Part shown: positions 8,256-31,907 of the stretch, piece after piece
Layout: every line of letters begins with the position of its first letter
Numbering within the stretch: the stretch's first letter is position 1
Origin: Bdellovibrionales bacterium
GTDB taxonomy: Bacteria; Bdellovibrionota; Bdellovibrionia; Bdellovibrionales; UBA1609
Length of the DNA: 32,000 nt
Direction of reading: 5' to 3'
Assembly (NCBI GenBank): GCA_963692945.1
Contig: OY843585.1
Location: 450,001-482,000, forward strand
Notes under the pieces: generated by a model
The model's input: the letters and a program-made list of their open reading frames with translations, nothing else
Database searches by the model: none
Told to the model about the DNA's origin: nothing
Program-made: the position numbers and the translations under genes

Positions 8256-8256
8256 C

Positions 8257-11220: not shown

Positions 11221-11262
11221 CTTTGAGTAGTCATTATTTTTATTTTTAGATAGGCTTAAACC

Positions 11263-12108
11263 ATGTATCCCCTATCTCATCTTAAAATTTCTTTTTTAGG
11301 TTGTGGTCAGATGGCACAAAGCCTAATTCAAGCTTATGTCCATCAGCCCAATTCACAGATATCTTCAAAAAATATTTTTATTTCTGGTCGTAATTTACAA
11401 AAAACAAAGCGAATTGCAGAAAAATTTAATGTGCAGATGGTTGTAGATAATGAAGAACTTTTAGATAAAAGTTCTGTTATTTTTTTATGTGTAAAACCTT
11501 TTGATGCAGAAGAGGCGATCCAAGCCTTAAGAAATAGTTTTGATTCCAATCATACTTTTATTAGTGTGATGGCAGGAGTGTCTATCAAACAGCTTCAAAA
11601 ATGGGGGTTATCTTCTCGTAGAATCGTTCGGCTTATGCCTAATATTGCTGTTTCTATAGGAGAAGGTTGTTTGCCTTTTTACAGTTATAAAAATCAAGAT
11701 TCCATTAATGCTTTTATTGAAGAATTATTAAAGTCTCTTGGACAAGTTGTGGTTTTAGATAATGAAGAATCTTTAAATGCTTTAACAGTGGCTTCAGCAA
11801 GTGGTGTTGGATTTTTCTTTGAGATTTTAGAGTATTGGATAGAGTGGTTGCAAAACCAAGGTTTTCCTTACAAAAAAGCCAGAGAAATCAGTGTGCAAAC
11901 TTTTTTAGCGACAGGGCTTTTAGCTCAAAAATATTCCCAAAAAAAGATTTTAGATTTACAAAAAGAAGTGGCTTCTGCAAAGGGAGTGACCGCTGCGGGT
12001 TTGAATACAATGAGAGAATTAGAATTGGAGAGAATTTTACGATTAAGTTTTGAAAAAGCAAGTTTAAGAGAAAAGGAATTATCTTATATAAAGTCTAAAA
12101 ACTCATAA
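11263..12108 (+). CDS. proC: Pyrroline-5-carboxylate reductase
   Basis: Rossmann N-terminus ISFLGCGQMAQSLI, then LCVKPFDAEEAI, ISVMAGVSIKQL, RLMPNIAVSIGEG and the C-terminal SAKGVTAAGLNTM motif. Confidence 0.9.
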   Translation: MYPLSHLKISFLGCGQMAQSLIQAYVHQPNSQISSKNIFISGRNLQKTKRIAEKFNVQMVVDNEELLDKSSVIFLCVKPFDAEEAIQALRNSFDSNHTFISVMAGVSIKQLQKWGLSSRRIVRLMPNIAVSIGEGCLPFYSYKNQDSINAFIEELLKSLGQVVVLDNEESLNALTVASASGVGFFFEILEYWIEWLQNQGFPYKKAREISVQTFLATGLLAQKYSQKKILDLQKEVASAKGVTAAGLNTMRELELERILRLSFEKASLREKELSYIKSKNS

Positions 12109-12178
12109 ATAACGCTTAGCAAAATAGCTCTCCCCCTAAAAGTTTTCTTTTTATCATCTTAAGCTATAGGATAATTCT

Positions 12179-12856
12179 ATGGATTTATCTAGAGATAGTA
12201 TTGTTTCCCGTCATTTTTCTAAGAAAGTTATGGGAGGGTTAAATGAGTTTGAAGTCCGTGATTTTCTTCATGTTTTGGCGGAAGAATTGAGGCATTTAAA
12301 GCAATTAAGTAAAGATCAAAATCAAAAATTAATGGCTCAAGAAGAGTTGGTCCAAGACTATAGAGATAGGGAACATATTTTGAAACAATCTATTTCTTCG
12401 GCCCAAGAAGTGGCTGATAGGATTCGTAGGGATGCTGAAAACCAAGCTCAACTGATTTTAGAAAAAGCTCAAGATAAATCAGATTCTTTAATTCAAGAAG
12501 CTCGTCATTCTCTTCAAAGTGTTTACAACGATATAGCCGATCTTAAACGACTTCATTTACAATTTAAAACGAGTTTGAAAGCGGCTTTGCAGGCTCAATT
12601 AGAATTGTTAGAACAAGGACCTCTTTTTGCTTCTAGCTTACCTTATAATTCAGAATCTTTAGCTGATAAAAATTTAAAAATTTCTAAACAAACTACAGAA
12701 CAAAATGCTGAATCTCCTGAAAGTTTAGAATCTCCTGAATCTCCTGAAAAACCTGAAAAGAATCTAGAAGACACTTTATCTGAAAGTCTAAGTTCTGATG
12801 AAGAATTAAACGCTTTAAAATCCTCTCTTCAATCTTTGGATAAGGATTTTTCTTAA
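12179..12856 (+). CDS. divIVA: DivIVA domain protein
   Basis: The N-terminus FSKKVMGGLNEFEVRDFLHVLAEELRHLK is a typical DivIVA lipid-binding/coiled-coil start. A long coiled coil follows, and the C-terminal tail has SPE/KPE repeats. Confidence 0.88.
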   Translation: MDLSRDSIVSRHFSKKVMGGLNEFEVRDFLHVLAEELRHLKQLSKDQNQKLMAQEELVQDYRDREHILKQSISSAQEVADRIRRDAENQAQLILEKAQDKSDSLIQEARHSLQSVYNDIADLKRLHLQFKTSLKAALQAQLELLEQGPLFASSLPYNSESLADKNLKISKQTTEQNAESPESLESPESPEKPEKNLEDTLSESLSSDEELNALKSSLQSLDKDFS

Positions 12857-13094
12857 AGTTTTAGATAGTTTTTTAATAAAGATTCTCTTTAAAAATCTCT
12901 TTTTTAGCTCGTTTTTTTTGAATATATTTTCTAGATTTTCTGGAGTTACTTTTTGATTTTGTGACCAAAAAAACGGGGTCAAAAACCTTGAAAAACTTAG
13001 ATTTTTTCTTTTTTTCAAATAAAAATTTTAAAAAAAATCAATTTTTCCAAAGGTCTTGACGATAATTAATTACAAGGCTTTTTTTGGAGGTCAC

Positions 13095-14258
13095 TTGGTT
13101 AAACAAATTATTTTACAGATTTTTATGGTTTCTTTTTTAGTGGCTTGTGGTTATGCTCCACCGGCTGTTCAAACACCTGCTTCACAAATTCCATCATACC
13201 CTACAGTGCAACAACCGGCTCCACAAACTCCATACCCACAAACACAACAACCGGGATATCCGTATGTGCAACAACCAGGATATCAAATACCACCTGTTGC
13301 AACGGCACCACAACCAACTCCAAGTGCTTCATTACCTTCAAGATCAAATAATAATGATGACGACGACGATGATGATGAGGATGATGACGATGAGGATGAG
13401 GATCAATGTAGAAATAAAAAAAGTTGTGTAAAAAGGTGTAAGGCTATTTATAAGTCAAGTCGTGATGAAACCCGATGTGGTAGATTAAGTGAAGATGAAG
13501 TTGAAGATTTAGAAGATGTTTTTGAAGTTTTAGAAGATCCCACTGAAGATGATTTAGAAGATTTAGATGTAGAAGATTTAAAAAAGTTTTTGAAAGTGAG
13601 TAATACTCCTCTTGAAAGAGAATCCAATAGATACTCTTCAGCAGATGCTAAAGCTTTTTTATTTTATATTGCAGAAAATGATGAAGTTGCGGAAGTTTTG
13701 AGATCAGAAGATAGTGGTTTTGAAATTTTAGATAATCTTTTAGAAGAACTGGATGAGGATACAGTAGAGGCTTTAGTGGACCGACTTGGGAGAGGAAATG
13801 ATAGCTTTATGGAAACCATTATAGAGTATGAAAATCTTGAGGCATTGGCATGGGTTCATGAGTATTTGGAAGATGGAACAAACGGTTACAATGCAAATTG
13901 TAATGGAAATGATAGATGTATTTTTGATAAATACTGTCGTATGGCTGATGAGTTAGATGCTAGCGAAAGAAGAGACCTTTATGAAACTGGGGACTTTGAA
14001 GACTTTTTAGAGGATGATGTTAATGTTCAGCAATCTGAGATAACTAATGATGATTATGGAGTGGCTTGTGAGATAAAAACAGAAGTAAGAGCAGCAGTAA
14101 CAGGAAACACACCATCACCAGCAGTTAATAAATACGAATACAGAGTGAAATCATGGACATCAGATCTTGATAGTAGGATAGATCAAGATGTTAAATATCT
14201 TATTTGGTCTCTATATCCTTCTCATTCTATTGTTTGGCCTCCATATCTTTCTCGATAA
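13095..14258 (+). CDS. Acidic Cys-signature lipoprotein, paralogue 1 (outlier, with Pro/Gln-rich linker and poly-Asp tract)
   Basis: A TTG at 13095 lies 4 nt after GGAGG (13086-13090) and gives MVKQIILQIFMVSFLVAC (lipobox). Core is CRNKKSCVKRCKAIYKSSRDETRC plus LEDPTEDDLEDLDV and AKAFLFYIAENDEVAEVL. The ORF-track start at 13056 is less likely. Confidence 0.78.
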   Translation: MVKQIILQIFMVSFLVACGYAPPAVQTPASQIPSYPTVQQPAPQTPYPQTQQPGYPYVQQPGYQIPPVATAPQPTPSASLPSRSNNNDDDDDDDEDDDDEDEDQCRNKKSCVKRCKAIYKSSRDETRCGRLSEDEVEDLEDVFEVLEDPTEDDLEDLDVEDLKKFLKVSNTPLERESNRYSSADAKAFLFYIAENDEVAEVLRSEDSGFEILDNLLEELDEDTVEALVDRLGRGNDSFMETIIEYENLEALAWVHEYLEDGTNGYNANCNGNDRCIFDKYCRMADELDASERRDLYETGDFEDFLEDDVNVQQSEITNDDYGVACEIKTEVRAAVTGNTPSPAVNKYEYRVKSWTSDLDSRIDQDVKYLIWSLYPSHSIVWPPYLSR

Positions 14259-14274
14259 AGAATACTCTACTTAT

Positions 14275-14603
14275 TTTCGCACCTGACTTTTTTGCATCGC
14301 TGTTTTTCTCTTCATTGCTTTACTTATTTTCTGAAAAACAATTTACAAAAAACCAGTAGTTTTTCTCTCTGCAAAAACCAGTAGTTTTTCTATCTACAAA
14401 AACCAATAGGTTTTCTCTAGTTCCATTTCCAAAACTCTAGTTCAAACATAAAATTCTATCTGCAAAAACCAATCTGCAAAAAATAGCAGTTTTTCTCTAG
14501 TTCGCTATAAGTAAGAACTCTTTTCTTTTTAGGTGTTTGAGGAGCTCCTACGATGAAAATCTCCTAAAAAGAAAAGAGTATTAGAACTGAACTAGAGTTT
14601 TGT
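14275..14603. repeat. Array of modular intergenic repeats, including the 113-bp left direct repeat (14491-14603)
   Basis: Three tandem copies of the (A/G)CAAAAACC-NNNN-GTTTTTCTCT motif lie at 14346-14420. The CAAAACTCTAGTTC termini are present, as is the hairpin module CTTTTCTTTTTAGG..CCTAAAAAGAAAAG. Confidence 0.8.
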
Positions 14604-14613
14604 AAATAGAGTT

Positions 14614-15039
14614 TTAATCAGAAGTTTCAGAAAGCTTCTTAGGTTTTCTTTTTTTGGGATTTACATAGTTTATATTGATTTTATCACAAATTTGACTCAT
14701 ATAAACTTCCATATGGCTTAAATGATTTACTTCTATTCTATTTATATTATCTTTTATTCCTATTATATTTTTTTTCATTCCTGTTATATCTTTTTTTAAA
14801 TCACCTGTTGTTCTATTTATATTATCTTTTATTCCTATTATATTTTTTTTTATTCCTGTTATATCTTTTTTTAAATCACCTGTTGTTCTATTTATATTAT
14901 CTTTCATTTCTACTATAGTTTCTTTTATTCCTGTTATATCTTTTTTTAAATCACCTGTTGTTCTATCAAAATAGTTTTTAACCATTTCCCACATTGTTTT
15001 TTGTTCTTCAGATATATAGTTTGAATTATCTTCACTCAT
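14614..15039 (-). CDS. Hypothetical protein with 3x 25-aa repeat (RTTGDLKKDITGIKKNIIGIKDNIN)
   Basis: There is a strong RBS, AAGGAGG, and an ATGA start/stop overlap with the upstream coiled-coil gene. The 75-bp DNA repeats lie at 14740-14964. Confidence 0.72.
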   Translation of the reverse strand: MSEDNSNYISEEQKTMWEMVKNYFDRTTGDLKKDITGIKETIVEMKDNINRTTGDLKKDITGIKKNIIGIKDNINRTTGDLKKDITGMKKNIIGIKDNINRIEVNHLSHMEVYMSQICDKININYVNPKKRKPKKLSETSD

Positions 15040-15365
15040 AAAACCTCCTTTATTTCGGTTTTAAGACTCTCTATTTTTTCATCTAGTTTATCTATCCTTG
15101 TATCTAGTTTTTTTATTTTAACATTTAGATCAACTACTTTTTCATCCAGCCTGTCTATTTTTCCAGATAACCCATCTACCTTTATATCTACTTTTGAATC
15201 TAGATTATCTATCTTTGAATCTAGATTTTCTATCTTTAAATCTAGATTATCTATCTTTAAATCTAGATTTTCTACTTTTCCACCTAATGTTTGCATTTCC
15301 ATAGATAACTTTTTTATTTCAAAAAGAATTTCATTTTGTCCTAAAGCATTTGCATTCATCGTCAT
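15036..15365 (-). CDS. Coiled-coil repeat protein (LDxKIDNLD heptads), paralogue of 23896-24309 but lacking its TM tail
   Basis: The N-terminus MNANALGQNEILFEIKKLS.EMQTL is shared with the right-hand copy. It contains heptad repeats NLDLKIDNLDLKIENLDSKIDNLDSKVD. Confidence 0.75.
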   Translation of the reverse strand: MTMNANALGQNEILFEIKKLSMEMQTLGGKVENLDLKIDNLDLKIENLDSKIDNLDSKVDIKVDGLSGKIDRLDEKVVDLNVKIKKLDTRIDKLDEKIESLKTEIKEVL

Positions 15366-15566
15366 TTTTTCTTCCTCTTTTTAGTGTCACTATTGTTTTT
15401 ATAAAAAATCATTTTTGAACAAGAATATCTTAACATAGATTGTAAAAAAATTCCATCCAAAAGACTTTCACTCATTACTAAAGCAAATATTACTGCTCCT
15501 TATAACTTCTAAAAGCCGTTTTTTTACAATTTTTTTGTATTACTGACAAATATCGGACAAAACTCT
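15055..15566. repeat. Left arm of large inverted repeat (partner 23695-24185)
   Basis: The reverse complement aligns with 23695-24185. This includes a 90-nt perfect match (15388-15477 vs 23784-23873) in the leader upstream of the coiled-coil genes. Confidence 0.85.
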
Positions 15567-15670
15567 AGTGTGTGAACTTTTATTTTCACGAGATTTGAAG
15601 AGTGTCCCTTTTGCGATGAAAAGCTCGTTAAAATAAGAGTAGGAAATACTTTTTTGAACGAGAGTTTTGT
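15558..15670. repeat. Single hairpin repeat module with terminal inverted repeats CAAAACTCTAG / CGAGAGTTTTG
   Basis: The internal hairpin is CTTTTATTTTCACGAG...CTCGTTAAAATAAGAG. Its first 45 nt or so recur at 24316-24360. Confidence 0.75.
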
Positions 15671-15882
15671 AAATTAAGACTTTTGTCCATTATTGATTTT
15701 TCTTGTGTTTGTTTACAACCATTTACCCTTAAACTATTTAAGTAGATAGCTTCATTTGGAACAAAAAAAGACTAAAATACAGCCATTTTTGAGGAGTCAT
15801 AGATTATTTATAAAATTTTTAAAGTTTAAAACCGACTTAACCGATGAATTTATTACTTGGAAAAGAAAAATGGAGGTTTTTC

Positions 15883-16893
15883 ATGAAACATTTTAAATAT
15901 ATAATTTTTTTACCAGCCTTATTGTTTTTAGTAAATTGTATTACACAGCCAGCAGATCCTGTTGTTCCAATTGTTACGAAACCAGCAAAATCAGCACCAG
16001 CACCTAGACCAGAATCTTATTATATTGAAAAAGCTAAGAGAGATTTAGATAAAGCAGAGACTTTAGCAAGAGCTAAAAATAAAAGAGATAGAGGTCCAAC
16101 TTGTGAAGGGGATGATGATTGTGAAGAAATCTGTGATGATATTTATAGAAGTCGTAGAGATCAAAACGATTGTGAAGAGTTCAGTGTTGCTCAAGTTGAA
16201 AGATTTGAAGAGATATATGAAATTTTAGAAGATCCCGATGAAGATGATCTTCAAGATATTGATGTATCTGAAGATGGAGACTTTGATGCTTTTATAAATA
16301 TAAGTATTGAGCCTTTACATAAACTAGTTGGAAAATACTCCTCAAGAGAGGCTAAAGACTTCTTAGCTTGGATTGCTAATAATGAAGATGTAGCTGAGCG
16401 TCTTGAAGATGAAGATGATGATTATGAAGTCCTTGATGCCCTTTTAGACGAATTAAATACTGAAGCTTTCACTGCTCTTGCAACTAATATTGATAGCAGT
16501 GATAACTTTATGGATCTTGCTGTTGTAGCGAGTAATGAAAAGGCTTTAGAGTGGATTCATGAATATCTTGAAAGTGAGCATGATAACTGTAGCAGTGATA
16601 CTAATACGAACAAAGAGGCATGTTTAACACACTATTGTGCCTTAGGAGCAGATATGGATGATGATAATGCGGAAGACTTACTAGGCGACTATGAATACTT
16701 TCAAGATTATATAGATGATATCATTTCAGATGAAATCTTTGGTGATACTAGTACTGCCGCAGATGGTGACACTCGAGAATCTGGCCACTGGGATGCTGAT
16801 GAAGACAGTGATAACTATATTGAAGAGTATGATGATATAGATGGTGATTGGTGGAGAGCTCCAACAAATACAGGCGGAGGTATCTGTCCATAA
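15883..16893 (+). CDS. Acidic Cys-signature lipoprotein, paralogue 2
   Basis: ATG at 15883 follows GGAGG (15872-15876). Signal is MKHFKYIIFLPALLFLVNC. Core motifs are CEGDDDCEEICDDIYRSRRDQNDC, LEDPDEDDLQDIDV, AKDFLAWIANNEDVA and a C-terminal WDADEDSDNYIEEYDDIDGDWW. Confidence 0.88.
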   Translation: MKHFKYIIFLPALLFLVNCITQPADPVVPIVTKPAKSAPAPRPESYYIEKAKRDLDKAETLARAKNKRDRGPTCEGDDDCEEICDDIYRSRRDQNDCEEFSVAQVERFEEIYEILEDPDEDDLQDIDVSEDGDFDAFINISIEPLHKLVGKYSSREAKDFLAWIANNEDVAERLEDEDDDYEVLDALLDELNTEAFTALATNIDSSDNFMDLAVVASNEKALEWIHEYLESEHDNCSSDTNTNKEACLTHYCALGADMDDDNAEDLLGDYEYFQDYIDDIISDEIFGDTSTAADGDTRESGHWDADEDSDNYIEEYDDIDGDWWRAPTNTGGGICP

Positions 16894-16915
16894 GATAATT
16901 ATCAATTTTAAATTT

Positions 16916-16950
16916 AAAAAGCCACTTTCAAAAGAAGTGGCTTTTTTTTT
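16916..16950 (+). terminator. Rho-independent terminator (bidirectional-looking)
   Basis: AAAAA-GCCACTT-tcaaaag-AAGTGGC-TTTTTTTTT lies immediately after the paralogue 2 stop. Confidence 0.75.
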
Positions 16951-17150
16951 AAACTCTAGTTCAATTTCCAAAACTCTAGTTCTACCCTTTTTACTTTTTG
17001 AGCTTTCATCGTAGGAGGGGATACTCTTCAACCTCAAAAAGTAAAAAGGGTATTCCTAGAGAAAAACTACTGGTTTTTGCATGAAGGGCTTTGTTCTTCA
17101 AAGCTCGTTAGAATAAGAGTAGGAAATATTTTTTTGAACTAGAGTTTTGT
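16951..17150. repeat. Composite of hairpin repeat modules
   Basis: AAACTCTAGTTC occurs twice. There is an 18-bp stem, CCCTTTTTACTTTTTGAG...CTCAAAAAGTAAAAAGGG, then CTAGAGAAAAACTACTGGTTTTTGC, with GAACTAGAGTTTTG at the end. The same modules occur inverted at 23458-23620. Confidence 0.8.
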
Positions 17151-17244
17151 AAAGCTAGACTAAAGTTTTATTTTTCTTTTTTTTGTCATAGGTTTAATTG
17201 TTGCAGGTTACTATGAAACATAGATTTTAAAGAGGAGAACTTTC

Positions 17245-18282
17245 ATGAGATATGTTTCGTTTCTATCCGTTTTTTTATTATTTGTGAATTGCACATCGGA
17301 ACCAACAAAAACAAAAGTTGTTCCTACACCAGAACCTAAATCAGACATTTATTATATTAAAAGAATTGAAAGAGATATAAATAGAAAATATGTTTTAGAT
17401 AAAGCCAAAGCGCAAGCAGGAAAAGTTTGTAAAGGTGATGAAGACTGTGAAGACATTTGTGATGATATTTATAGCAGTCGTAGAGAAAGAAATGATTGCG
17501 AAGAGTTAAGCATTACTCAAGTTAATAGATTTGAAGGGATATATGAAACTTTAGAAGATTCCGATGAAGATGATCTTCAAGATATTGATGTTTCTAAAGA
17601 TGGAGACTTTGATGTTTTTATAAATGTAAGTATTGAACCTTTACATAAATTGGTTGGAAAATACTCCTCAAGAGAGGCTAAAGATTTTTTAGCTTGGATT
17701 GCTAATAATAAAGATGTAGCTGAACTTCTTGAAAACGAAGATGATGATTATGAAGTTTTAGAAAGGCTTCTTGGTCGTTTGGGTGCTTCTGATAATCTCT
17801 TTGAAGCTCTTAAAAAAAATCTTGATGGTGGAGACACTTTTATAGATCTTGCTGTTACAGCAGATAATGAAGTGGCTTTAGAGTGGATTTATGAATATCT
17901 TGAAGAAAAAGATTCTAACTGTAAATTAGATACTGATGCAGGTAGAGAAGCTTGTTTAGAATCTTATTGTGGATTAGCAGGAGATATAGAAGATGACAAT
18001 GCTAACCATTTACTAGGTTATGATTTTTTTGAAGGTTATATAGAAGATATTATTGAAGATAAAATCAATGCTGATCCGGATACAAATGATGGTGCTGAAA
18101 CACCGGATTGTAATATTCCTCTTTCGAACCCGGTAACTCTAACTTATACAATTGCTACTTGTCCTAGTGGTGTTTGTGAGATTTCTGGTTGTAATGGTAG
18201 AGCATGGGATGCTGACCCAAATAGTGATAACCAAATTGAAGATATAGATGATTTAGATGATTGGTGGACAGATCTTTGTTAG
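17245..18282 (+). CDS. Acidic Cys-signature lipoprotein, paralogue 3
   Basis: RBS GAGGAG. Signal is MRYVSFLSVFLLFVNC and core is CKGDEDCEDICDDIYSSRRERNDC. It carries a unique Cys-rich insert (TPDCNIPLS...CPSGVCEISGCNG) and ends WWTDLC. Confidence 0.88.
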   Translation: MRYVSFLSVFLLFVNCTSEPTKTKVVPTPEPKSDIYYIKRIERDINRKYVLDKAKAQAGKVCKGDEDCEDICDDIYSSRRERNDCEELSITQVNRFEGIYETLEDSDEDDLQDIDVSKDGDFDVFINVSIEPLHKLVGKYSSREAKDFLAWIANNKDVAELLENEDDDYEVLERLLGRLGASDNLFEALKKNLDGGDTFIDLAVTADNEVALEWIYEYLEEKDSNCKLDTDAGREACLESYCGLAGDIEDDNANHLLGYDFFEGYIEDIIEDKINADPDTNDGAETPDCNIPLSNPVTLTYTIATCPSGVCEISGCNGRAWDADPNSDNQIEDIDDLDDWWTDLC

Positions 18283-18307
18283 TAAAATTAAAAACCGGAG
18301 GTTATTT

Positions 18308-19249
18308 ATGAAATATTTAAAGTATATAATTTTTTTACCAGTTTGTTTATTTGTTGTGAATTGTGTCCAACAAATACCGCCTGTTGCTCCTACTAAATCA
18401 GATACTTATTATGATACAAGAAATCAAGATGATGATGACAGAGATGAAATTTTAAGACTGGCTATAGAAGCTGGGGGAAAAGCTTGTAGCACAGATGATG
18501 ATTGTAGAGATGATTGTAGAGATATTTACAGTCGTCGTAAAGAAAAAAATGAGTGTGAAGAGTTAAGCATTACTCAAGTTGATAGACTTAAAACCATTTA
18601 TGAAACTTTAGAAGATCCGGATGAAGATGATCTTTTAGAAATTGATGTTACTAAAAATGGAGACTTTGATATTTTTATAAATATTGATATTAAGCCTCTA
18701 CATGATGCGGTTGGAAAATATAAAAAAGGAGAAGCTGGGGATGTTTTGGCTTGGATTGCTAAACACACAGAAGTGGCTACTATTTTTTCAAAAGAAGATA
18801 ATGATTACGAAGTCTTAAGTCGTTTGCTTAAGAAGCTGGATTCTAACACATTTACAGCACTTGGAACTCGTATTGAAAGCAGGAAAAATTTTATGGATCT
18901 TGCTGTTGTAGCAAGTAATGAAGCGGCTTTAGAGTGGATTTTTGAATACATTGAAGAAACAGACAATGACTGTAAAGAAAGTGATGATTCTAACAGGGAA
19001 GATTGTTTAGAATCTTATTGTGGCTTAGCAGAAGATATGGATGAAGATAATGCAGATGGATTATTAGATTATGATTTTTTTAGTGGGCTCATAGAAGATT
19101 TTATTGAAGATGGAATCAATGGTGATGATGATACAAGTAATGGTGATGACAGACCTGGTTCTGGTAAAGCGTGGGACGCTGATCCTGGAAGTGATAGTCG
19201 TTTTGAAGACATTGATGATTTAAATGAATGGTGGACAGATCTTTGTTAA
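18308..19249 (+). CDS. Acidic Cys-signature lipoprotein, paralogue 4
   Basis: ATG at 18308 follows CCGGAGG. Signal is MKYLKYIIFLPVCLFVVNC and core is CSTDDDCRDDCRDIYSRRKEKNEC. It ends WWTDLC. Confidence 0.88.
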   Translation: MKYLKYIIFLPVCLFVVNCVQQIPPVAPTKSDTYYDTRNQDDDDRDEILRLAIEAGGKACSTDDDCRDDCRDIYSRRKEKNECEELSITQVDRLKTIYETLEDPDEDDLLEIDVTKNGDFDIFINIDIKPLHDAVGKYKKGEAGDVLAWIAKHTEVATIFSKEDNDYEVLSRLLKKLDSNTFTALGTRIESRKNFMDLAVVASNEAALEWIFEYIEETDNDCKESDDSNREDCLESYCGLAEDMDEDNADGLLDYDFFSGLIEDFIEDGINGDDDTSNGDDRPGSGKAWDADPGSDSRFEDIDDLNEWWTDLC

Positions 19250-19321
19250 AATATTGGAAAAAAAGGATTTATAAAATTTTAAAAGTAACTTAATCAACGA
19301 AAAGAAAAATGGAGGTTTTTT

Positions 19322-20344
19322 ATGAAACATTTTAAATATATAATTTTTTTACCAGCCTTATTGTTTGTGGTAAATTGTACTACGCAACCAGTAGCTCCTA
19401 TTGTTGAAAAAAAAGCACCAGTCCCAGCACCTAAACCAGAATCTTATTATATTGAAAAAGCTAAGAGAGATTTAGATAAAGCAGACACTATAGAAAGAGG
19501 TAAAAAGAAAAGAGATAGAGGTCCAATTTGTGAAGGGGATGATGATTGTGAAGAAATCTGTGATGATATTTATAACAGTCGTAGAGACAGAAATGATTGT
19601 GAAGAGTTAAGTGTTGCTCAAGTGGAAAGGTTTGAAGAGATGTATGAAATTTTAGAAGATCCTGATGAAGATGATCTTCAAGATATTGATATGTCTGATG
19701 CTGGAGACTTTGATGTTTTTATAAATATAAGTATTGAACCTCTACATAAATTGGTTGGAAAATACAATACAAGAGAGGCTAAAGACTTTTTGGCTTGGAT
19801 TGCTGGAGATGAAGATGTAGCTGAAATTCTTGAAGATGAAGATGATGATTATGAAGTTCTTGATACTCTTTTAGACGAATTAAATACGGATGCTTTCCTT
19901 GCTCTTGCAGTTAATATTGATAGCAGTGATAACTTTATGGATCTTGCTGTTGTAGCGGGTAATGAAAAGGCTTTAGAGTGGATTCATGATTATCTTGAAA
20001 GTGAGCATGATGACTGTAAATTAGAAACTAATGCAGGAAAACATAATTGTTTAGTAGGCTATTGTGCCTTAGGAGTAGCTATGCAGGATCGTAATGCGGA
20101 AGACTTACTAGATAACCATGAATACTTTCAAGATTATATAGATGATCTTATTTCAGATAAAATCAATGGTGATGATACTATTGTCGGAGAGGGTGAAACT
20201 CGTACAACAACCAAATGGGATGCTGATGAAGACAGTCCTAACCAAATTGAAGAGTATGATGATTTAAATGAATGGTGGACAGGTCCAGCCGACGAAAAGG
20301 GTGAGGGTGGTTTCTGCACAACAGTTGAAGCAAGCAGAAGCTAA
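19322..20344 (+). CDS. Acidic Cys-signature lipoprotein, paralogue 5
   Basis: RBS GGAGG. Signal is MKHFKYIIFLPALLFVVNC and core is CEGDDDCEEICDDIYNSRRDRNDC. The 5' UTR and signal region are nearly identical to paralogue 2. Confidence 0.88.
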   Translation: MKHFKYIIFLPALLFVVNCTTQPVAPIVEKKAPVPAPKPESYYIEKAKRDLDKADTIERGKKKRDRGPICEGDDDCEEICDDIYNSRRDRNDCEELSVAQVERFEEMYEILEDPDEDDLQDIDMSDAGDFDVFINISIEPLHKLVGKYNTREAKDFLAWIAGDEDVAEILEDEDDDYEVLDTLLDELNTDAFLALAVNIDSSDNFMDLAVVAGNEKALEWIHDYLESEHDDCKLETNAGKHNCLVGYCALGVAMQDRNAEDLLDNHEYFQDYIDDLISDKINGDDTIVGEGETRTTTKWDADEDSPNQIEEYDDLNEWWTGPADEKGEGGFCTTVEASRS

Positions 20345-20420
20345 CGATTTTGATAAGTCAGTTACTATAAAAAATAAACCTCATAATAAAGAGGTGAATC
20401 ATTTTATAAATCTATAAACT

Positions 20421-21242
20421 ATGAAGTTGTTATTCTATTTTCTAATCTCCTTTTTCTTAATGTCTTGTGAAGATAATTTTGAGGAGAGGTTTAATTCTTT
20501 AGGAGATGGAAAGACTTCTTCAGAATTTTATCTTTCCTACAGGCAGCGGCATCCAACCAGAGCAAAATTTTTAACAGAAGCTGCAGTCTTGTATAATAAA
20601 AATGAGGTTTGTAAAGATTTAAAGGCTTGTTCCAATCTGTGTGGAAAATTATTTCAATATGATTTTGACCAAAAAGATTGTAGAGATTTACCTGTTTCTT
20701 TAGTAAACAGATTTAATTTTATTTATAAAACTTTTGAAAATAAGAATTTCAAAGCCCTTCCAACATTCAATCTGTTTGATCTCAAAATTTTTCTAAGCTT
20801 TAGTCTAGAACCTTCGGTTAGATTGTTTAGTAAACTGGGTTCATTGACTGCAAAAGGCTTTTTAAAGCAACTGGCTTCCAATTGGGATATAGCCCAGATC
20901 TTTATTCAGGAAGATCTAGACTTTATTTTGTTAGAAACTCTATTAAATGAAATTGGAAATGAACCGATAAAGGCTTTAGGAGAAACTATAGAGAGTGGAG
21001 CCTCTTTTCAAGAAATTGCTTTATTCAAACAAAATGATTTTGCAATTTCTTTTATTCATAATTTTTTTAAAAAATTATGTAATAATGAAGAAAGATGTAT
21101 TTTAAATCATTACTGTTTGGTTTCTAAGGGTTGGGATAAAAAGACTTTAATTGAATTAAGTCATTTTAAAAGTTTGAAGGAGATTTTACAAAAACATAGA
21201 GGACAAAATGATACATTACAATCTCTTTGTCCTATCTTGTAA
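20421..21242 (+). CDS. Cys-signature lipoprotein, paralogue 6 (divergent, not acidic)
   Basis: Signal is MKLLFYFLISFFLMSC. It has the same Cys spacing (CKDLKACSNLCGKLFQYDFDQKDC) and colinear motifs (FLSFSLEP, AKGFLKQLASNWDIAQIF, CNNEERCILNHYC). The RBS is weak. Confidence 0.78.
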   Translation: MKLLFYFLISFFLMSCEDNFEERFNSLGDGKTSSEFYLSYRQRHPTRAKFLTEAAVLYNKNEVCKDLKACSNLCGKLFQYDFDQKDCRDLPVSLVNRFNFIYKTFENKNFKALPTFNLFDLKIFLSFSLEPSVRLFSKLGSLTAKGFLKQLASNWDIAQIFIQEDLDFILLETLLNEIGNEPIKALGETIESGASFQEIALFKQNDFAISFIHNFFKKLCNNEERCILNHYCLVSKGWDKKTLIELSHFKSLKEILQKHRGQNDTLQSLCPIL

Positions 21243-21255
21243 AAAGGAGTTTATT

Positions 21256-22356
21256 ATGTGGAAAATATTTCAATGGTCACTGATTCTTTTTTGTATGCTT
21301 TTGTTGAGCTGTGGAGAGCAACAAAATAGTAGTGTTACAAAGGAAACTCCAGTAGATCCAGCTCCAGCTGTTGAAAAAGTTGTTACAGATGATCAGCTAG
21401 AAAAATCGGAAAAGAAAGTTGAATCAGAAAGAAGGCGGCTTAAACAAAATTTAGTTTTAAAAACAGATGTAGATGATCGTTACTCAACAACTAATTCATC
21501 TTCTTCTTTTACTGGTAACAGAGAATGTGGTGATTATGATGATTGTCGTGTCATTTGTGATCGTATCAAGAGAAATAACAGCCGTTGCTTTTCATACTCT
21601 TACAATATTGTTGAAGATATGGAACAAGCTTTACTCACCATAAGAAATATTGATGAAGTCAATCGTGTAGATATTGATCCTTATATTTTTGAAGCTATAT
21701 TGACACTTGGAACATCGGTCCTTTCTGATTTAATAGAAGATACAATGAGTGAAGGAGATTTAAAAAGTTTTTTAGCTTGGGTCGCTCTTAATGAGGATAT
21801 TGCTAGAGTGTTAAGCAATAAAGATCGCTCTGGTAAAATTTTGGAAAAAGCTTTTGATGAATTAGGTCGGCTTCAAGATGGAGTAACAAAACATTATGAA
21901 TTTATAGGATTAAACACAGGTTTAATTACAGACGATGACACTTTCTTTTATTTAGCTTCTGATGAAGACAATGAAAAAGCTTTTGCAATGGCTTATGATA
22001 TTTTAAACTCTGGTTCTTGTAGGAGTATAACTTGCCAACAGCAGATTTTATGTGCAAGGGAGCATCGTAGTCGTAGTAGATCTTCGCGTCGTCTCTTTGG
22101 TAACACAAGGGGGATTTCTCTTTGTAGAACTTCTTCCGAAGCGAGAAGAAGCTCTAGATCATCAAACACTTGTTATGTCCATGGAAGTTCTGTTTGGAGT
22201 TATCTTTATGATTTGATAGATGATAAAGAAATAAGAAGAGCACCATCTGAGTTCAGGGTAAAACCTTTAGGGGTGAAAAGGTGTAATGATGTTTGTGGAC
22301 GAACTTCTAGTAAAAATCAAAAATGTAGTTTATTTAATCCAGAGGAACTTAGGTAA
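21256..22356 (+). CDS. Cys-signature lipoprotein, paralogue 7 (divergent, Arg/Ser-rich basic C-terminus)
   Basis: ATG at 21256 follows AAGGAG. Signal is MWKIFQWSLILFCMLLLSC, with CGDYDDCRVICDRIKRNNSRC and LKSFLAWVALNEDIARVL. The C-terminal tail is HRSRSRSSRR...RRSSRSS. Confidence 0.82.
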   Translation: MWKIFQWSLILFCMLLLSCGEQQNSSVTKETPVDPAPAVEKVVTDDQLEKSEKKVESERRRLKQNLVLKTDVDDRYSTTNSSSSFTGNRECGDYDDCRVICDRIKRNNSRCFSYSYNIVEDMEQALLTIRNIDEVNRVDIDPYIFEAILTLGTSVLSDLIEDTMSEGDLKSFLAWVALNEDIARVLSNKDRSGKILEKAFDELGRLQDGVTKHYEFIGLNTGLITDDDTFFYLASDEDNEKAFAMAYDILNSGSCRSITCQQQILCAREHRSRSRSSRRLFGNTRGISLCRTSSEARRSSRSSNTCYVHGSSVWSYLYDLIDDKEIRRAPSEFRVKPLGVKRCNDVCGRTSSKNQKCSLFNPEELR

Positions 22357-22368
22357 TAGGAGGATCTT

Positions 22369-23196
22369 ATGAAGATTTTTAAAATTGTAACAACAATAAT
22401 AATTGGTTTTATATTTTTGTCTTGTATACAGGGAAGGCGACCAGTTGATTTTTCTACTATATTTGCAGCTTCTACTGGTGAGTCTAGTGCTAAAACTTCT
22501 AAAAGGAGAAGTTCTTCTAAAAGAGTAAGAAGCTCCTGTGTTGATGATGAGGATTGTGAAGACATTTGTGAAGATATTTATGACGATGATGACGATGATG
22601 GTGATGGAGTGATTGAAAGATGTCTTAAATTATCTAAGAAAACCATTGGTCATTTTGATACCATTATAGATTATTTGTCTGACCCTACATTGAGAAATGT
22701 GAGGACGGTTAAAGAAGAATACAGCGATGAATTTGAAGATTTAATAAATGTTTCTTTATCTCCTTGGATAGATGTTGCTGATAGTGTGAGTCCGACAGAA
22801 GCTGAAGCTTTATTAACTTTTATAGCTTCATCTGATGTGATTGCATCGGCTTTAAAAAAGGGTTCAAGAAATTATGAAGGTTATGATAAATATGAAGGAA
22901 TTAAAGAACTCTTAACAGAAGCTCGTGGAAGTGTTAATGCTGAGATCTCACGTGCTGGAGGTGGTGGGGATACTTCTACATACACTATTGTAACCCCCAG
23001 TAAATGTAATACGTTTTATTACGCTCTTTGTGAGTTAGGCATTTCTGGAAGTGATACTTTTAGTGAGATAGCTGTGACTGAGGAAAATACACATGCTACA
23101 AGTATAAGAGATTCTATTTTACTCGCTGCTTGTGATACAGATATTAGTCGTTGGGTAGTTCTTACTAATAATAGTGATAGTTGTTATAGAGACTAA
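22369..23196 (+). CDS. Acidic Cys-signature lipoprotein, paralogue 8 (divergent)
   Basis: RBS AGGAGG. Signal is MKIFKIVTTIIIGFIFLSC, with CVDDEDCEDICEDIYDDDDDDGDGVIERC, LINVSLSP and AEALLTFIASSDVIASAL. Confidence 0.82.
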   Translation: MKIFKIVTTIIIGFIFLSCIQGRRPVDFSTIFAASTGESSAKTSKRRSSSKRVRSSCVDDEDCEDICEDIYDDDDDDGDGVIERCLKLSKKTIGHFDTIIDYLSDPTLRNVRTVKEEYSDEFEDLINVSLSPWIDVADSVSPTEAEALLTFIASSDVIASALKKGSRNYEGYDKYEGIKELLTEARGSVNAEISRAGGGGDTSTYTIVTPSKCNTFYYALCELGISGSDTFSEIAVTEENTHATSIRDSILLAACDTDISRWVVLTNNSDSCYRD

Positions 23197-23200
23197 CTCC

Positions 23201-23690
23201 TAGTTCGTAATTTTCTTATGGCTGAAAAATTCTAGAAAATGATTCTGCGAAAAGTCAGTGAAGAGAAAAACCATGTTTTTCTCTATGAATGAGCTTTTGC
23301 AAAAACCAACATGTTTTCTCTAGATTCGCAATTTTCTTATGATGGCTGAAAAATTCTAGAAAATGATTCTGCGAAAAGTCAGTGAAGCGAAAAACCATGT
23401 TTTTCTCTATGAACAAGCTTTTGCAAAAACCAGCAGGTTTTCTCTAGTTCCATTTCCAAAACTCTAGTTCAATCTTTTATTTTAACGAGATTTGAAGAAC
23501 AAAGCCCTTCATGCGAAAAACAGTAGTTTTTCTCTAGGAATACCCTTTTTACTTTTTGAGGTTGAAGAGTATCCCCTCCTACGATGAAAGCTCAAAAAGT
23601 AAAAAGGGAAGCACTAGAGTTTTGTAAAAGAGTGTCCTTCTTACGATGAAAGCTCAAAAAGTAAAAAGGGAAGCACTAGAGTTTTGGAAA
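23201..23690. repeat. Largest repeat field: about 120-bp tandem duplication (23201-23320, 23321-23443) followed by hairpin modules
   Basis: The two tandem units are near-identical and each contains two GCAAAAACC..GTTTTCTCTAG-type motifs. Then come CAAAACTCTAGTTC, the 18-bp-stem hairpin (inverted copy of 16985-17055) and a partial duplicate of it. Confidence 0.85.
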
Positions 23691-23694
23691 TTAA

Positions 23695-24185
23695 GAGTTT
23701 TGTCCGGTATTCGTGAGTAATACAAAAAAGTTGTGAAAAAAACTGCTTTTAGAAGTTATATGGAGCAATAATATTTGCTTTAATAATGAGTGAAAGTCTT
23801 TTGGATGGAATTTTTTTACAATCTATGTTAAGATATTCTTGTTCAAAAATGATTTTTTATAAAAACAATAGTGCGACTAAAAATAGGGAGAAAAAATGAT
23901 GAACGCCAATGCTTTAGGACAAAATGAAATTCTTTTTGAAATAAAAAAGTTATCTACACAAATGCAAACATTAGATTCAAAGATAGAAAATCTAGATTCA
24001 AAGATAGATACAAAGATAGATGGATTATCTGCAAGAATAGATAGATTGGATGAAAAGGTGGTTGATTTAGATGTTAAGGTAGATAAATTAGATACAACAG
24101 TAAATGCAAGAATAGATAAATTAGATGAAAAAGTAGATACAAGGATAGATAAATTAGATGAAAAAGTAGAGGGTCTTAAAACCGA
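23695..24185. repeat. Right arm of large inverted repeat (partner 15055-15566)
   Basis: See the left arm. The 90-nt perfect match is at 23784-23873. Similarity ends right after CTTAAAACCGA (24185 / 15055). Confidence 0.85.
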
Positions 24186-24309
24186 TCATGCTGAACTCAG
24201 TGCAAGTGTGGTTAGTATAAAGTATTATCAAAAAGTTTCTACATGGCTTATTACTTTGCTTCTCCCTACATTTATGGGTATTGCTGTTGCAGTCATTAAA
24301 TATGTTTAA
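23896..24309 (+). CDS. Tail-anchored coiled-coil repeat protein (IDKLDEKVD repeats plus C-terminal TM)
   Basis: The N-terminus MMNANALGQNEILFEIKKLSTQMQTL is shared with 15036-15365. It has repeats of (I/V)DxLDxK(V/I) and a C-terminal TM, TWLITLLLPTFMGIAVAVIKYV. Confidence 0.8.
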   Translation: MMNANALGQNEILFEIKKLSTQMQTLDSKIENLDSKIDTKIDGLSARIDRLDEKVVDLDVKVDKLDTTVNARIDKLDEKVDTRIDKLDEKVEGLKTDHAELSASVVSIKYYQKVSTWLITLLLPTFMGIAVAVIKYV

Positions 24310-24315
24310 ATCCTA

Positions 24316-24543
24316 AACAAAACTCTAGTGTGTGAACTTTCATTTTAACGAGATTTGAAGAACAAAACTCCATAAGCGAAAAACAGCAGTTTTTCTATCT
24401 GCAAAAAACCAGTTTGTAAAAACCAGCAGGTTTTCTCTAGTTCGCTATAAGTAAGAACTCTTTTCTTTTTAGGTGTTTGAGGAGCTCCTACGACGAAAAT
24501 CTCCTAAAAAGAAAAGAGTATTAGAACTGAACTAGAGTTTTGT
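24316..24543. repeat. Repeat modules including the 113-bp right direct repeat (24431-24543)
   Basis: Positions 24431-24543 differ from 14491-14603 at one position (t/c in CTACGA[T/C]GAAAA). The repeat ends exactly at the stop codon of the convergent gene 24543-24767. Confidence 0.85.
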
Positions 24544-26070: not shown

Positions 26071-27109
26071 TCATTTTTCGGTTTTTGTTTTTCGTAAACG
26101 CCTATCTATTATTAACTGTCTAAACTGATAAACTCTTTTGATCATCTTTTTTCGTTTAGCAATTTTTTTTGAAAAAGGGAGTATGGTGTATTTGTCATAG
26201 CTGGCTTTTGAAAAACGAGTTGTATCGTCAATCTGAGTTCCTTCAAGATTCGCTCCTGTCAAATCCGCTTTTTGCAGGTTGGCTCCTTTAAGGTTGGTTT
26301 TTTGAAGCTGAGCCCTTTGTAGATTGGCTCCATAAAGATTAGTTTTTTGAAGCTGAGCTTCTTTAAGATTGGCATTTTCAAGATTCGCTGCTGTAAGATT
26401 AGCCTCTTGAAGCTGAGCCCTTTGAAGATTAGCACTATCAAGCTGAGCTCCTTTAAGGTTGGCTTGACGAAGATGAGCTCCATAAAGATTAGCTGAACTG
26501 AGGCTAGCTTTTTGAAAATTAGTTCGGTTAAGACGAGCAAATTGCAACTCATTCATTTGTACAGAGGATTTTTGCAACTGGCTATCTTGAAGTTTAGATT
26601 TGTGAAGTACAACACCTCTAAGATCAGCTCCTTGAAAATTCATTTTTTTTAAATCAACTCCTCGTAAATTAACAAACCGAAGATCTGCTTCTTGAAAATA
26701 AGCTCCTTGCACATGAGCTTCTTGAAAATTAGCAAATGAAAGTTTAGCTTTTTGAAACTGAGTTTTTTGAAGTTTGGCTTTACTAAAATTAGCCCATAGA
26801 AGGTCAGCTCCTTGAAAATTCGCTCCTCTAAGATCAGCTCCTTGAAAATTGGCGTTGCGAAAACTAAATTTTCTAAGATCAGCTCCTTTAAGGTTAGCCC
26901 CTTTAAGATCGACTCCTTGAGATATAGTGCTTTTCAAGTCTTTTCCTTTTAAATCTTTTATGGTGCAAATGCCATCACATATCTTTTCCTTTTAAATCTT
27001 TTATGGTGCAAATGCCATCACATACTTTTTTATAACGAGGTTTTGTTGCTACACTTTGTTGAATTGATGTAAGCAAAATGCAAAAACTTAAAGTGATAAT
27101 AAATCTCAT
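26071..27109 (-). pseudogene. Secreted pentapeptide-repeat protein disrupted by a 43-bp tandem duplication (signal peptide uncoupled from the repeat body)
   Basis: ATG at 27109 encodes MRFIITLSFCILLTSIQQSVA TKPRYKKVCDGICTIKDLKGKD, then runs into TGA at 26975-26977. Removing one 43-bp copy joins it in frame to ...DLKSTISQGVDLKGANLKGADL, the 288-aa pentapeptide ORF whose track start at 26937 is a TTG. Confidence 0.75.
26939..27024. repeat. Perfect 43-bp tandem duplication (2 copies)
   Basis: TCTTTTCCTTTTAAATCTTTTATGGTGCAAATGCCATCACATA at 26939-26981 is repeated exactly at 26982-27024. Confidence 0.92.
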
Positions 27110-27782: not shown

Positions 27783-28619
27783 ATGGTTAATAAAATTCAT
27801 AATGGAGACTGTGTCTCTTTAACAAATCAATTAGAAAAAGAATCAATACATTTATCTCTTTTCTCTCCTCCATACGATTTAATAAGAGATTATGACAATG
27901 GAAATGCGTTTGATAATGTTGAATTAGGAAAATCTATTTATGAAAAAACGGTAGATGGTGGAGTGGCTGTAGTTGTTATAGGTGATGGAACTAAAGATTT
28001 TGCAAAATCACTCACTTCATTTAGATTAGCTGTTAATTGGTGTGATCAAGCAGGCTGGAGGTTATTTGAATGTTGTATCTACAAAAGGCATGGAAATCCA
28101 GGAGCATGGTGGAGTAAAAGATTTAGAGTGGATCATGAATACATCTTAATATTTTTAAAAGGAAGACGTCCTAGATATTTTTCTAAAGAGCATTTATTTG
28201 TTGATTGTAAACATGCAGGTAAGGGTTACACAGGAACGGATCGTTTAACTAGTGGTGGAACAATTCCTATGAAAAAAGGCAAGGTGGTTGCAAATAAAAA
28301 ATGCAGAGGAACGATTTGGACATATGCAACTAGTAACAGTGAAGGAAATGCTTTAAAGTTAAAACATCCAGCCACTTACCCAGACCTTCTTGCGAGAGAT
28401 ATTATAAAAACTTTTACAAAAAAAGGAGATGTAGTTTTAGATCCTATGTGTGGGAGTGGAACAACCTGTGTTATTGCCTCTAAAGAGAAACGAAAGTATG
28501 TTGGGTTTGATATATCTGAGGATTATATTAAAATTGCTAGACAACGTTTAAAAATTGAACGAGGAGATGTAGAATGGGAAACAAGTTCAAACATAGAGAA
28601 AAACACGAGTTTTCTTTAG
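27783..28619 (+). CDS. DNA methyltransferase, beta-class (motif IV SPPY before motif I); N4-cytosine or N6-adenine
   Basis: It has LFSPPYDL near the N-terminus, KHPATYPDLLARDII, and DPMCGSGTTCV near the C-terminus. Confidence 0.88.
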   Translation: MVNKIHNGDCVSLTNQLEKESIHLSLFSPPYDLIRDYDNGNAFDNVELGKSIYEKTVDGGVAVVVIGDGTKDFAKSLTSFRLAVNWCDQAGWRLFECCIYKRHGNPGAWWSKRFRVDHEYILIFLKGRRPRYFSKEHLFVDCKHAGKGYTGTDRLTSGGTIPMKKGKVVANKKCRGTIWTYATSNSEGNALKLKHPATYPDLLARDIIKTFTKKGDVVLDPMCGSGTTCVIASKEKRKYVGFDISEDYIKIARQRLKIERGDVEWETSSNIEKNTSFL

Positions 28620-30557: not shown

Positions 30558-30785
30558 AATGTCAAACTCCTTTCATTTTTAAAAAGCAAAAAGAATGTTT
30601 TTATGGTTATAATTTTATATTTTTTGAAAAATTTCTATATTGATTATTTTACTTAACTATCTATAGTATAAATATACTTCACAAAGAGCTTCTTAAATGG
30701 AAAAATCATTTTAAAATAGGTTCTTTTGGAGAAGAGTTTGTAATGCGAAATCGAGACTTCAGTTCAAAAAATAAAAAGGTAGGTA

Positions 30786-31439: not shown

Positions 31440-31521
31440 TATTTCTCCTTTTTTTAGTTTACCATAAGTTATATGCAAAAACCATGCCAAGTTTTATAAA
31501 GAAATATGAAAAACAAAGTTT

Positions 31522-31565: not shown

Positions 31566-31696
31566 CTCATTCAACAAACTCTATTTGCAAAAACCAGAAG
31601 GTTTTCTCTAGGAATACCTTTTTATTTTTTGAGATTTGAAGAGTGTCTCTCTTACGATGAAAAGCTCAAAAAATAAAAAGGAAGAACTAGAGTTTT
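31566..31696. repeat. Hairpin repeat module (same family as 16985-17055)
   Basis: GCAAAAACCAGAAGGTTTTCTCTAGG, then the hairpin CTTTTTATTTTTTGAG...CTCAAAAAATAAAAAG, then GAACTAGAGTTTT. Confidence 0.75.
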
Positions 31697-31907
31697 ATAA
31701 AATGGATGGGGCGGCAGGATTCGCCTACTACATTCGTTCGCATCCAGCTCACTCATTGCGTAGGCTCACTTCAGTCACTAAGAAAAACATCCTGTTTTTC
31801 TTCCCTGTATCACTTGCTCCTAAAGTCGCAAGTGATTTGCTCCTAAAGTCGCAAATAATACAGGTCGTTCCTTCACTTCGAATCCTGCACCAACTCATTC
31901 AACAAAC
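31693..31907 (+). other. Structured repeat unit / candidate ncRNA with tRNA- or tmRNA-end-like termini; a second copy begins at 31977
   Basis: Nested helices: GCAGGATTCG (31714-23) / CGAATCCTGC (31879-88); GCCTAC/GTAGGC; GAAAAACA/TGTTTTTC; CCTGTAT/ATACAGG; CACTTGC/GCAAGTG. The 24-nt start TTTTATAAAATGGATGGGGCGGCA recurs at 31977-32000. Confidence 0.35.

Follow-up and report, generated by a model that had tools for sequence, protein, structure and literature searches.

A diverged inverted repeat around a lipoprotein gene array in a Bdellovibrionales genome, probably a partial duplication of a lineage-specific small operon

The lipoprotein array and the inverted repeat around it

We analysed a stretch of 32,000 nucleotides from a Bdellovibrionales bacterium (contig OY843585.1 of assembly GCA_963692945.1, positions 450,001 to 482,000), hereafter referred to as the window, in which an inverted repeat encloses most of an array of lipoprotein genes. 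The array consists of eight paralogues, all on the plus strand: lipoprotein genes 1 to 4 (15844-16893, 17245-18282, 18257-19249, and 19322-20344), lipoprotein genes 5 to 7 (20421-21242, 21208-22356, and 22369-23196), and an eighth paralogue (13056-14258). The first seven lie between the arms of the inverted repeat and the eighth outside, as a first-pass annotation made from the DNA letters had claimed, and alignment confirms that the eight are paralogues. The encoded proteins are Cys-rich and acidic and share five invariant Cys in the alignment. All eight start with a hydrophobic N-terminus followed by an invariant Cys (in VNC, LSC, VAC, or MSC contexts), which, judged by eye, is a predicted lipobox. 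The family matches no Pfam or NCBIfam model, and its relatives were found solely in metagenome-assembled genomes (MAGs) of Bdellovibrionales. The AlphaFold model of a member is confident and all-alpha (predicted local distance difference test 87, predicted template modelling score 0.84) and has no significant fold match in the PDB.

The arms of the inverted repeat lie at 15055-15566 (left arm, minus strand) and 23694-24185 (right arm, plus strand), and the segment between them spans 8.1 kb. Local alignment pairs the left arm with the reverse complement of the right one, a repeat finder returns the same pieces, and BLASTN gives an overall identity of 81% across 516 columns, so that the repeat reported by the first-pass annotation is real; it is the largest inverted repeat of the window. 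Identity is unevenly distributed. The inner part (15248-15566 and 23694-24010) is about 92% identical, with 27 differences in 320 columns, and the outer block (15055-15112 and 24128-24185, 58 nt) is 93% identical, while the middle part (15113-15247) is degenerate because it falls inside heptad repeats that differ in number. An assembly artefact was considered as the source of the arms and rejected, since many positions and the number of repeats differ between them and neither gene is disrupted.

Two coiled-coil genes facing outwards

Each arm contains an upstream region of about 90 nt, a candidate small open reading frame (ORF), and part of a gene for a coiled-coil protein. The left arm includes 94% (15055-15365) of the gene we call CC109 (15036-15365, minus strand) and the right arm 70% of the gene we call CC137 (23896-24309, plus strand); the earlier description of two-thirds of a gene per arm thus fits the right arm and falls short for the left one. 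Both arms do carry the approximately 200 nt upstream of the coiled-coil gene that were ascribed to them. CC109 encodes 109 amino acids with heptad repeats and no membrane anchor, whereas the 137-residue CC137 product ends in a hydrophobic anchor, STWLITLLLPTFMGIAVAVIKYV. The two proteins share an N-terminus (MNANALGQNEILFEIKKLS) followed by heptad or 11-residue repeats of the KIDxLDxKV type. As already noticed in the first-pass annotation, the coding repeats have diverged both in sequence and in number: in the protein alignment, CC109 has three extra heptads near its N-terminus and CC137 an additional stretch of 13-15 residues nearer its C-terminus. Homology ends directly past the LKT codons, after which CC137 runs into its anchor and CC109 continues for six more codons before a TGA. 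This TGA overlaps, as ATGA, the start of a further gene, ORF141 (14614-15039, minus strand), which has its own AAGGAGG ribosome-binding site, encodes 141 amino acids with 25-residue (75-nt) tandem repeats, and lies outside the inverted repeat.

When the window's housekeeping genes are used to train a codon model, CC109, CC137, and ORF141 all score as coding (+0.42 bits per codon for CC109 and +0.43 for ORF141). The first 19 codons of CC109 and CC137 show two synonymous differences and no replacement, while the next 19 show seven replacements. This distribution of silent and replacement changes indicates that the copies diverged under protein-level selection and were not recently homogenised.

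Neither coiled-coil protein passed a curated Pfam, NCBIfam, or PHROG threshold; among the best 25 of the 131-146 Pfam families matched per protein, there were only generic, sub-threshold coiled-coil matches. No homologue of the unique N-terminus was recovered by a word-indexed search of 5.8 billion proteins or by phmmer against 1.84 billion representatives, and peptide-pattern scans of viral and metagenome contigs, as well as tblastn against phages, gave repeat-driven similarity alone. CC137 does align over its full length with KIDxLDxK proteins that are small and tail-anchored (36% identity to P0223), but this similarity is mostly repeat-driven. Some of these phmmer relatives are above a Pfam threshold, namely P0204 and P0223 for PF07798 and P0228 for KID.

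An exact 90-nt block and a candidate small ORF

The longest exact match between the arms is a block of 90 nt (15388-15477 on the minus strand and 23784-23873 on the plus strand), and the perfect identity initially reported for it was confirmed. When 27 differences are randomly placed in 320 columns, an exact run of at least 90 nt arises in 0.2% of 200,000 trials (P ~0.002). Such a run is thus too rare under random placement for the block to be a chance feature of two sequences about 92% identical. The first-pass annotation took the block for non-coding DNA and proposed that it was either a very recent conversion tract or a constrained regulatory or RNA element; the run statistics agree with conversion or constraint, and the regulatory option, which fares less well, is considered further below.

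Rather than being non-coding, the block probably represents the first 29 codons of a 37-codon ORF, which is unbroken in both arms. The left copy (15362-15475, minus strand) reads MSESLLDGIFLQSMLRYSCSKMIFYKNNSDTKKRKKK, and the right copy (23786-23899, plus strand) ends in NNSATKNREKK. This candidate gene has its ATG 2 nt into the block and its TGA in an ATGA overlap with the start codon of CC109 or CC137, like the overlap between CC109 and ORF141. In Markov-1 simulations of the leader, an ATG-started ORF of at least 37 codons ending in that overlap occurs in 0.4% of cases (P 0.004), and the in-frame codon log-odds are positive (+6 bits for the left copy and +10 bits for the right copy). The 29 codons in the block offer only 14 synonymous sites, so that an absence of differences has a probability of 0.14-0.31 with strict purifying selection at flank divergence, as opposed to 4e-6 to 5e-4 if the block is neutral.

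Several points weigh against this interpretation and against the wider scenario of which it forms part. The codon score of the right copy only reaches the 92nd percentile among 61 small ORFs of the window, the ORF lacks a Shine-Dalgarno sequence at the usual spacing (the closest GGAG lies 20 nt upstream), and the last eight codons show three replacements and no silent change. The 37-residue peptide is absent from the public protein collection (~15 billion predicted proteins), although neighbouring genes of the same contig are present, and CC109 and CC137, for which several alternative starts were tried, are absent as well. The proteins of this contig found in the collection are ORF141 (exact match), a zinc-ribbon protein, lipoproteins 2, 4, 6, and 7, and a 349-residue protein that is probably lipoprotein 1; the coiled-coil genes seem to have been left uncalled in the public gene calls. 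Moreover, as there are only two copies of the unit and none in relatives, selection on the peptide and a conversion tract are inseparable. Finally, promoters cannot be mapped by the consensus scan, which shows no sigma-70-like site common to both arms and is also blank upstream of the S4 and L31 genes, missing even ribosomal-protein promoters.

The most serious competitor is a recent short gene-conversion tract in non-coding promoter DNA, the small ORF then being a chance frame. The significantly long exact run is expected under this hypothesis, and the missing ribosome-binding site and the replacement-only tail of the ORF fit it too. Conversion at the locus is also consistent with the patchy similarity of lipoproteins 1 and 4, whose proteins are 77% identical and whose genes share exact runs of 45-51 nt and 50-nt windows at 92-98%. 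The arms show a similar level of identity, which suggests that duplication or conversion took place at about the same time in both. However, a conversion tract would hardly be expected to start so close (2 nt) to the ATG of an ORF whose stop forms a precise ATGA overlap with the next gene, and the in-frame codon score is positive. We therefore consider conversion alone a rather unlikely explanation, albeit one to be taken seriously.

MITE-like repeats at the ends of the arms

Nearly every intergenic region around the locus is built of repeats resembling miniature inverted-repeat transposable elements (MITEs), with terminal inverted repeats of 18-19 nt (TTTACAAAACTCTAGTTC / GAACTAGAGTTTTGTAAA). 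We counted 25 occurrences of the terminal-repeat motif in the window, versus 4.9 expected. Complete elements measure 118-230 bp and are present in at least seven copies in the 32 kb. The modules form strong hairpins (z -2.2 to -3.1), and have no coding capacity and no Rfam match. No member of the family was detected in the 12 related loci searched (loci L013 and L014 are not among these), no clear target-site duplication is visible at the ends of the elements, and no transposase is encoded among the window proteins. By its sequence, the family appears to be undescribed and unrelated to described ones. The elements also have a mosaic structure, nesting with duplication of the termini is frequent, and one copy begins 3 nt after a tRNA-Val gene.

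Five of these elements, designated A to E, lie around the arms and the array. Element A (14423-14609), delimited by the terminal inverted repeats given above, abuts the 3' end of ORF141. Element B (15554-15673, RNA fold z = -2.6) overlaps the left arm, whose inner end (15557-15566, ACAAAACTCT) is the first 10 nt of the terminal repeat of this element. Element C (16962-17153) lies between lipoprotein genes 1 and 2 and forms a nested inverted repeat with element D (16965-17136 and 23457-23628, 91% identical), which comes second to the arms among the inverted repeats of the window. Element D (23453-23628) is itself part of a cluster that fills the interval between lipoprotein gene 7 and the right arm (23200-23693), together with a tandem 124-nt unit (23200-23447) and a partial copy (23629-23690). 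The right arm opens with a 10-nt terminal-repeat remnant (AGAGTTTTGT) beside the end of another element, whereas the left arm enters a complete element. Element E (24314-24543, RNA fold z = -3.1) begins 5 nt past the CC137 stop codon, and its section 24404-24543 is 95% identical, in direct orientation, to 14464-14603. The outer ends of both gene units thus adjoin further MITE-like elements. Elsewhere in the window, there are complete elements at 3572-3713 and 31580-31707, and a further site of the family at 30746-30815. As the rearrangement breakpoints coincide with MITE ends, our results suggest that MITEs may have mediated the duplication.

An alternative is that the two units are separate insertions of a mobile cassette with MITE-type termini, instead of products of a segmental inverted duplication. 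Sequences of the terminal-repeat type do bound the units (AGAGTTTTGT at 23694 and 15566, ACAAAACTCT at 24316, and AAAACTCT at 14609-14616), and a family abundant in the window and absent from the relatives searched would be compatible with mobility. Yet the terminal repeats on the outer side are those of complete MITEs next to the units, the 3' ends of the two units differ, no target-site duplication was seen, and the window encodes no transposase, which makes this scenario improbable.

The locus in related genomes

Searches with ribosomal protein S4 assign the window to a Bdellovibrionales clade known solely from MAGs, with genomes of 1.0-1.6 Mb. Three related loci are informative with respect to the array: L005 and L012, whose S4 proteins are 94% and 95% identical to that of the window, respectively, and the more distant L014, from the same sample (ERZ25072174) as L009, the S4 of which is 85% identical. 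Further relatives identified with S4 (L006-L011) are not syntenic at the locus. The gene order in L005 is DivIVA, an orthologue of the paralogue lying outside the arms, a pair of unrelated small genes, one gene where the window has lipoproteins 1-4, lipoproteins 5-7, the zinc-ribbon gene, and S4. The orthologue of the eighth paralogue is at the same place in L005 and L014, and in L014 the array again follows DivIVA. As lipoproteins 1-4 correspond to a single gene in L005 (15612-16556), they represent a lineage-specific fourfold expansion.

With DivIVA, S4, and the zinc-ribbon gene as references, L005, L012, and L014 all have the array in the orientation of the window. Comparing cassette orientation across relatives had been proposed as a check on inversion: it revealed no alternative orientation, and all three relatives are devoid of the arms. 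L005 contains no coiled-coil gene, leader, or MITE, and L012 lacks coiled-coil genes, leader, and MITEs. In L014 and L013, tblastn detected no coiled-coil gene or ORF141 (these two loci were compared with the proteins, and neither with the leader or the MITEs). BLASTN of the leader against the rest of the window and 12 of the 14 related loci (all but L013 and L014) gave no match, and a 24-mer from the 90-nt block matched none of the metagenome contigs. Thus, as far as the related loci and the collections searched go, the leader is not conserved at homologous loci, a result that the first-pass annotation had linked, together with a single orientation, to a simple duplication remnant.

The slot between lipoprotein 7 and the zinc-ribbon gene has a different content in every genome seen. 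Based on these comparisons, the array appears to be old and to have kept its ancestral orientation in the window, its two border slots are insertion hotspots, and the coiled-coil units, the lipoprotein 1-4 expansion, and the MITEs are apparently specific to the lineage of the window.

Other occupants of these slots deserve mention on their own account. In L012, the zinc-ribbon/lipoprotein 7 slot (3343-5468) holds an ankyrin-repeat gene and an AAA_14/DUF4143 ATPase gene, along with 73 nt (4168-4240) duplicated from the 3' end of the zinc-ribbon gene, an arrangement that resembles the footprint of an inserted element. In L008, a MAG locus whose S4 is 86% identical, a tyrosine recombinase of the phage integrase family (11080-12041) is encoded directly past the zinc-ribbon gene, where the window has the start of its lipoprotein array; the contig extends no further. 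The L014 array is interrupted (8038-9830 and 11446-17665) by an AbiEii system, an SNF2 helicase, a methyltransferase with a BglII-type endonuclease, and an AAA_14 ATPase, and thus doubles as an insertion site for defence islands. L005 carries three copies, about 95% identical and in direct orientation, of an unrelated gene for a small secreted or tail-anchored protein (9001-9444, 17035-17457, and 17851-18275), two of them in the slot taken in the window by CC109 and ORF141, and the third on the far side of L31 and S4. The CC109/ORF141 slot draws different multi-copy small genes in different lineages. Finally, L005 has an inverted repeat of its own at the same border (11042-11221 and 12553-12731, with 56 nt of perfect identity and 124 nt at 87%). 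It consists of a partial copy of the lipoprotein 7 orthologue that is inverted and has no promoter, and in which 180 common nucleotides are followed by a different, Ala/Asp-rich C-terminus. Inversion there would exchange the C-terminal half of the orthologue, in a shufflon-like layout with no recombinase nearby.

Origin of the inverted repeat

We infer that the inverted repeat probably arose when part of a small, lineage-specific operon was duplicated in inverted orientation, the copies then diverging, and that it is probably not a programmed switch. The duplicated part would comprise the upstream region of about 90 nt, the 37-codon small ORF, and the N-terminal coiled-coil module. The copies occupy the two MITE-filled, hypervariable intergenic slots bordering lipoprotein genes 1-7, the right copy keeping its C-terminal membrane anchor and the left copy ending early, in putative translational coupling to ORF141. 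Homology stops inside a MITE terminal repeat on the inner side and, on the outer side, at the LKT codons where different 3' modules are joined. Purifying selection on the small-ORF peptide, perhaps aided by conversion over a short tract, would be the simplest explanation for the identity of the 90-nt block. RecA-type inversion between the arms is still conceivable as a rare event, and its effect would be nearly neutral.

Inversion of the cassette by homologous recombination was the main proposal of the first-pass annotation. It is physically possible, since the arms include a 90-bp perfect tract within about 320 bp at 92% identity, and such a tract exceeds the minimal homology for RecA-type recombination. 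Nothing in our analysis otherwise supports it. Pfam scans detected no serine or tyrosine recombinase among the window proteins, and the 8-19% divergence of the arms would depress homologous exchange. In addition, as each arm has its own upstream region, a crossover within the arms regenerates the same gene structures, rebuilding upstream region, small ORF, N-module, and C-module on both sides. Inversion thus leaves the pairing of promoters and genes within the arms unchanged, and alters solely which gene set follows lipoprotein 7.

It is this last effect that a switch of the Campylobacter fetus sap type would exploit: RecA-dependent inversion of the 8-kb segment would change the coiled-coil gene downstream of the lipoprotein operon or of a unique internal promoter. 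The geometry is suitable, with opposed paralogues that have common upstream and 5' coding sequences and different 3' ends bracketing 8.1 kb. CC137 is co-oriented with lipoprotein 7 and downstream of it, with no canonical terminator in between, and inversion would put CC109 and ORF141 in its place; the inverted repeat of L005 at the same border, with its alternative C-terminus for lipoprotein 7, is a further parallel. Frequent exchange is nevertheless difficult to reconcile with arms that have diverged by 8-19% and accumulated indels, unlike the near-identical sap 5' regions. Each coiled-coil gene has about 200 nt of upstream DNA in its arm and therefore probably its own promoter, lipoprotein 7 and the right arm are some 500 nt apart, with strongly folding MITE hairpins in between, the orientation of the window is the ancestral one in three relatives, and just two copies are known. 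We thus regard a switch of this type as quite improbable, the arms being presumably not involved in regular switching.

Similarly low chances apply to the hypothesis of a constraint on every base of the 90-nt block, acting as a cis-regulatory element (a promoter or operator) or as a structured leader RNA. The block does occupy promoter or 5' UTR territory, from -112 to -23 relative to the coiled-coil ATG, and identical control regions would co-regulate both genes. However, it matches no Rfam family at gathering or relaxed thresholds, and folding, which had been proposed as a check for a regulatory RNA, is no better than for shuffled sequence (z = -0.9 and -0.3). No promoter common to the arms emerged from the scan (with the poor sensitivity noted above), related sequences are missing from the rest of the window and from the 12 related loci searched, and 90 consecutive invariant bases are rarely needed in regulatory DNA. 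A small coding ORF, perhaps combined with conversion, accounts better for the block than a conversion tract alone, and both account for it better than a regulatory or RNA element. The least probable proposal combines the two border repeats: the arms as a recombinase-independent switch choosing either CC137 (anchored) or CC109 and ORF141 (soluble) downstream of the lipoprotein operon, with the L005 repeat swapping the C-terminus of lipoprotein 7, would be a very long shot.

If partial duplication is the correct explanation, the locus illustrates ordinary genome dynamics, namely the inverted partial duplication of an orphan operon at the MITE-rich borders of an old array of surface lipoproteins. 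Its yield is then at the level of annotation: two coiled-coil genes missing from the public collection, a candidate 37-residue protein translationally coupled to them, and an undescribed MITE family. The region behind DivIVA would be a hotspot into which lineages of this small-genome clade insert defence, ankyrin, and orphan genes or inverted cassettes. Greater weight would attach to the arms only if inversion occurs and changes expression; were the switch reading true, this clade would possess a family of surface-variation devices based on homologous recombination.

Other genes of the window (3824-4495, 5438-9861, 26071-26937, 27783-28619, and 30786-31490) encode an ankyrin-repeat protein, three consecutive FHA-domain proteins beside a T2SS-F gene, a 288-residue pentapeptide-repeat protein, an orphan N4/N6 DNA methyltransferase, and a protein with an Hjc-like nuclease domain. 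Along with a genome of about 1.6 Mb and 31% GC, this gene set hints at a host-associated lifestyle.

Comparison with known systems

Invertible systems of the Hin, Gin, Fim, and shufflon types have a recombinase gene next to the invertible segment, which is not the case in the window. The closest precedent for the geometry is the S-layer (sap) locus of C. fetus, for which Dworkin and Blaser reportedly described, in the 1990s, RecA-dependent inversion between the conserved 5' regions of opposed sapA homologues. The sap arms are about 600 bp long and essentially identical, a single promoter lies inside the invertible segment, and the locus encodes large S-layer proteins from 8-9 gene copies. Both loci have outward-facing paralogues with common upstream and 5' coding sequences, divergent 3' parts, a multi-kilobase segment in between, and no dedicated invertase. 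They differ in that the arms studied here are only 81% identical overall (92% over 320 nt), with indels and different repeat numbers; that each arm has its own 200 nt or so of upstream DNA, against a single promoter inside the sap segment, the promoter scan being uninformative in this respect; and that the genes concerned are two tiny coiled-coil genes. The L005 repeat, for its part, recalls the G segment of phage Mu and the R64 shufflon, as it offers an inverted, promoterless partial copy with an alternative C-terminus. Those systems rely on short crossover sites and a dedicated recombinase, whereas the repeat of L005 is long and homologous; a cassette of this kind is absent from the window.

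The intergenic repeats share with MITE or Correia-type elements their size (118-230 bp), terminal inverted repeats of 18-19 nt, hairpin structure, non-coding nature, many intergenic copies, and presence at rearrangement breakpoints. They depart from described MITEs in their sequence and in their mosaic, nested organisation. The coiled-coil proteins can be compared with Borrelia Bdr proteins (KID repeat, PF02524) and with bacterial PF07798 proteins (CCDC90-like, formerly DUF1640). Although CC137 and CC109 score below the curated thresholds of these families, and CC109 has no anchor, CC137 shows the same succession of a short unique N-terminus, KIDxLDxKV-type repeats, and a C-terminal anchor. 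In both cases, repeat number varies between paralogues, as observed for CC137 and CC109. Bdr genes are also multi-copy and adjoin families of lipoprotein genes.

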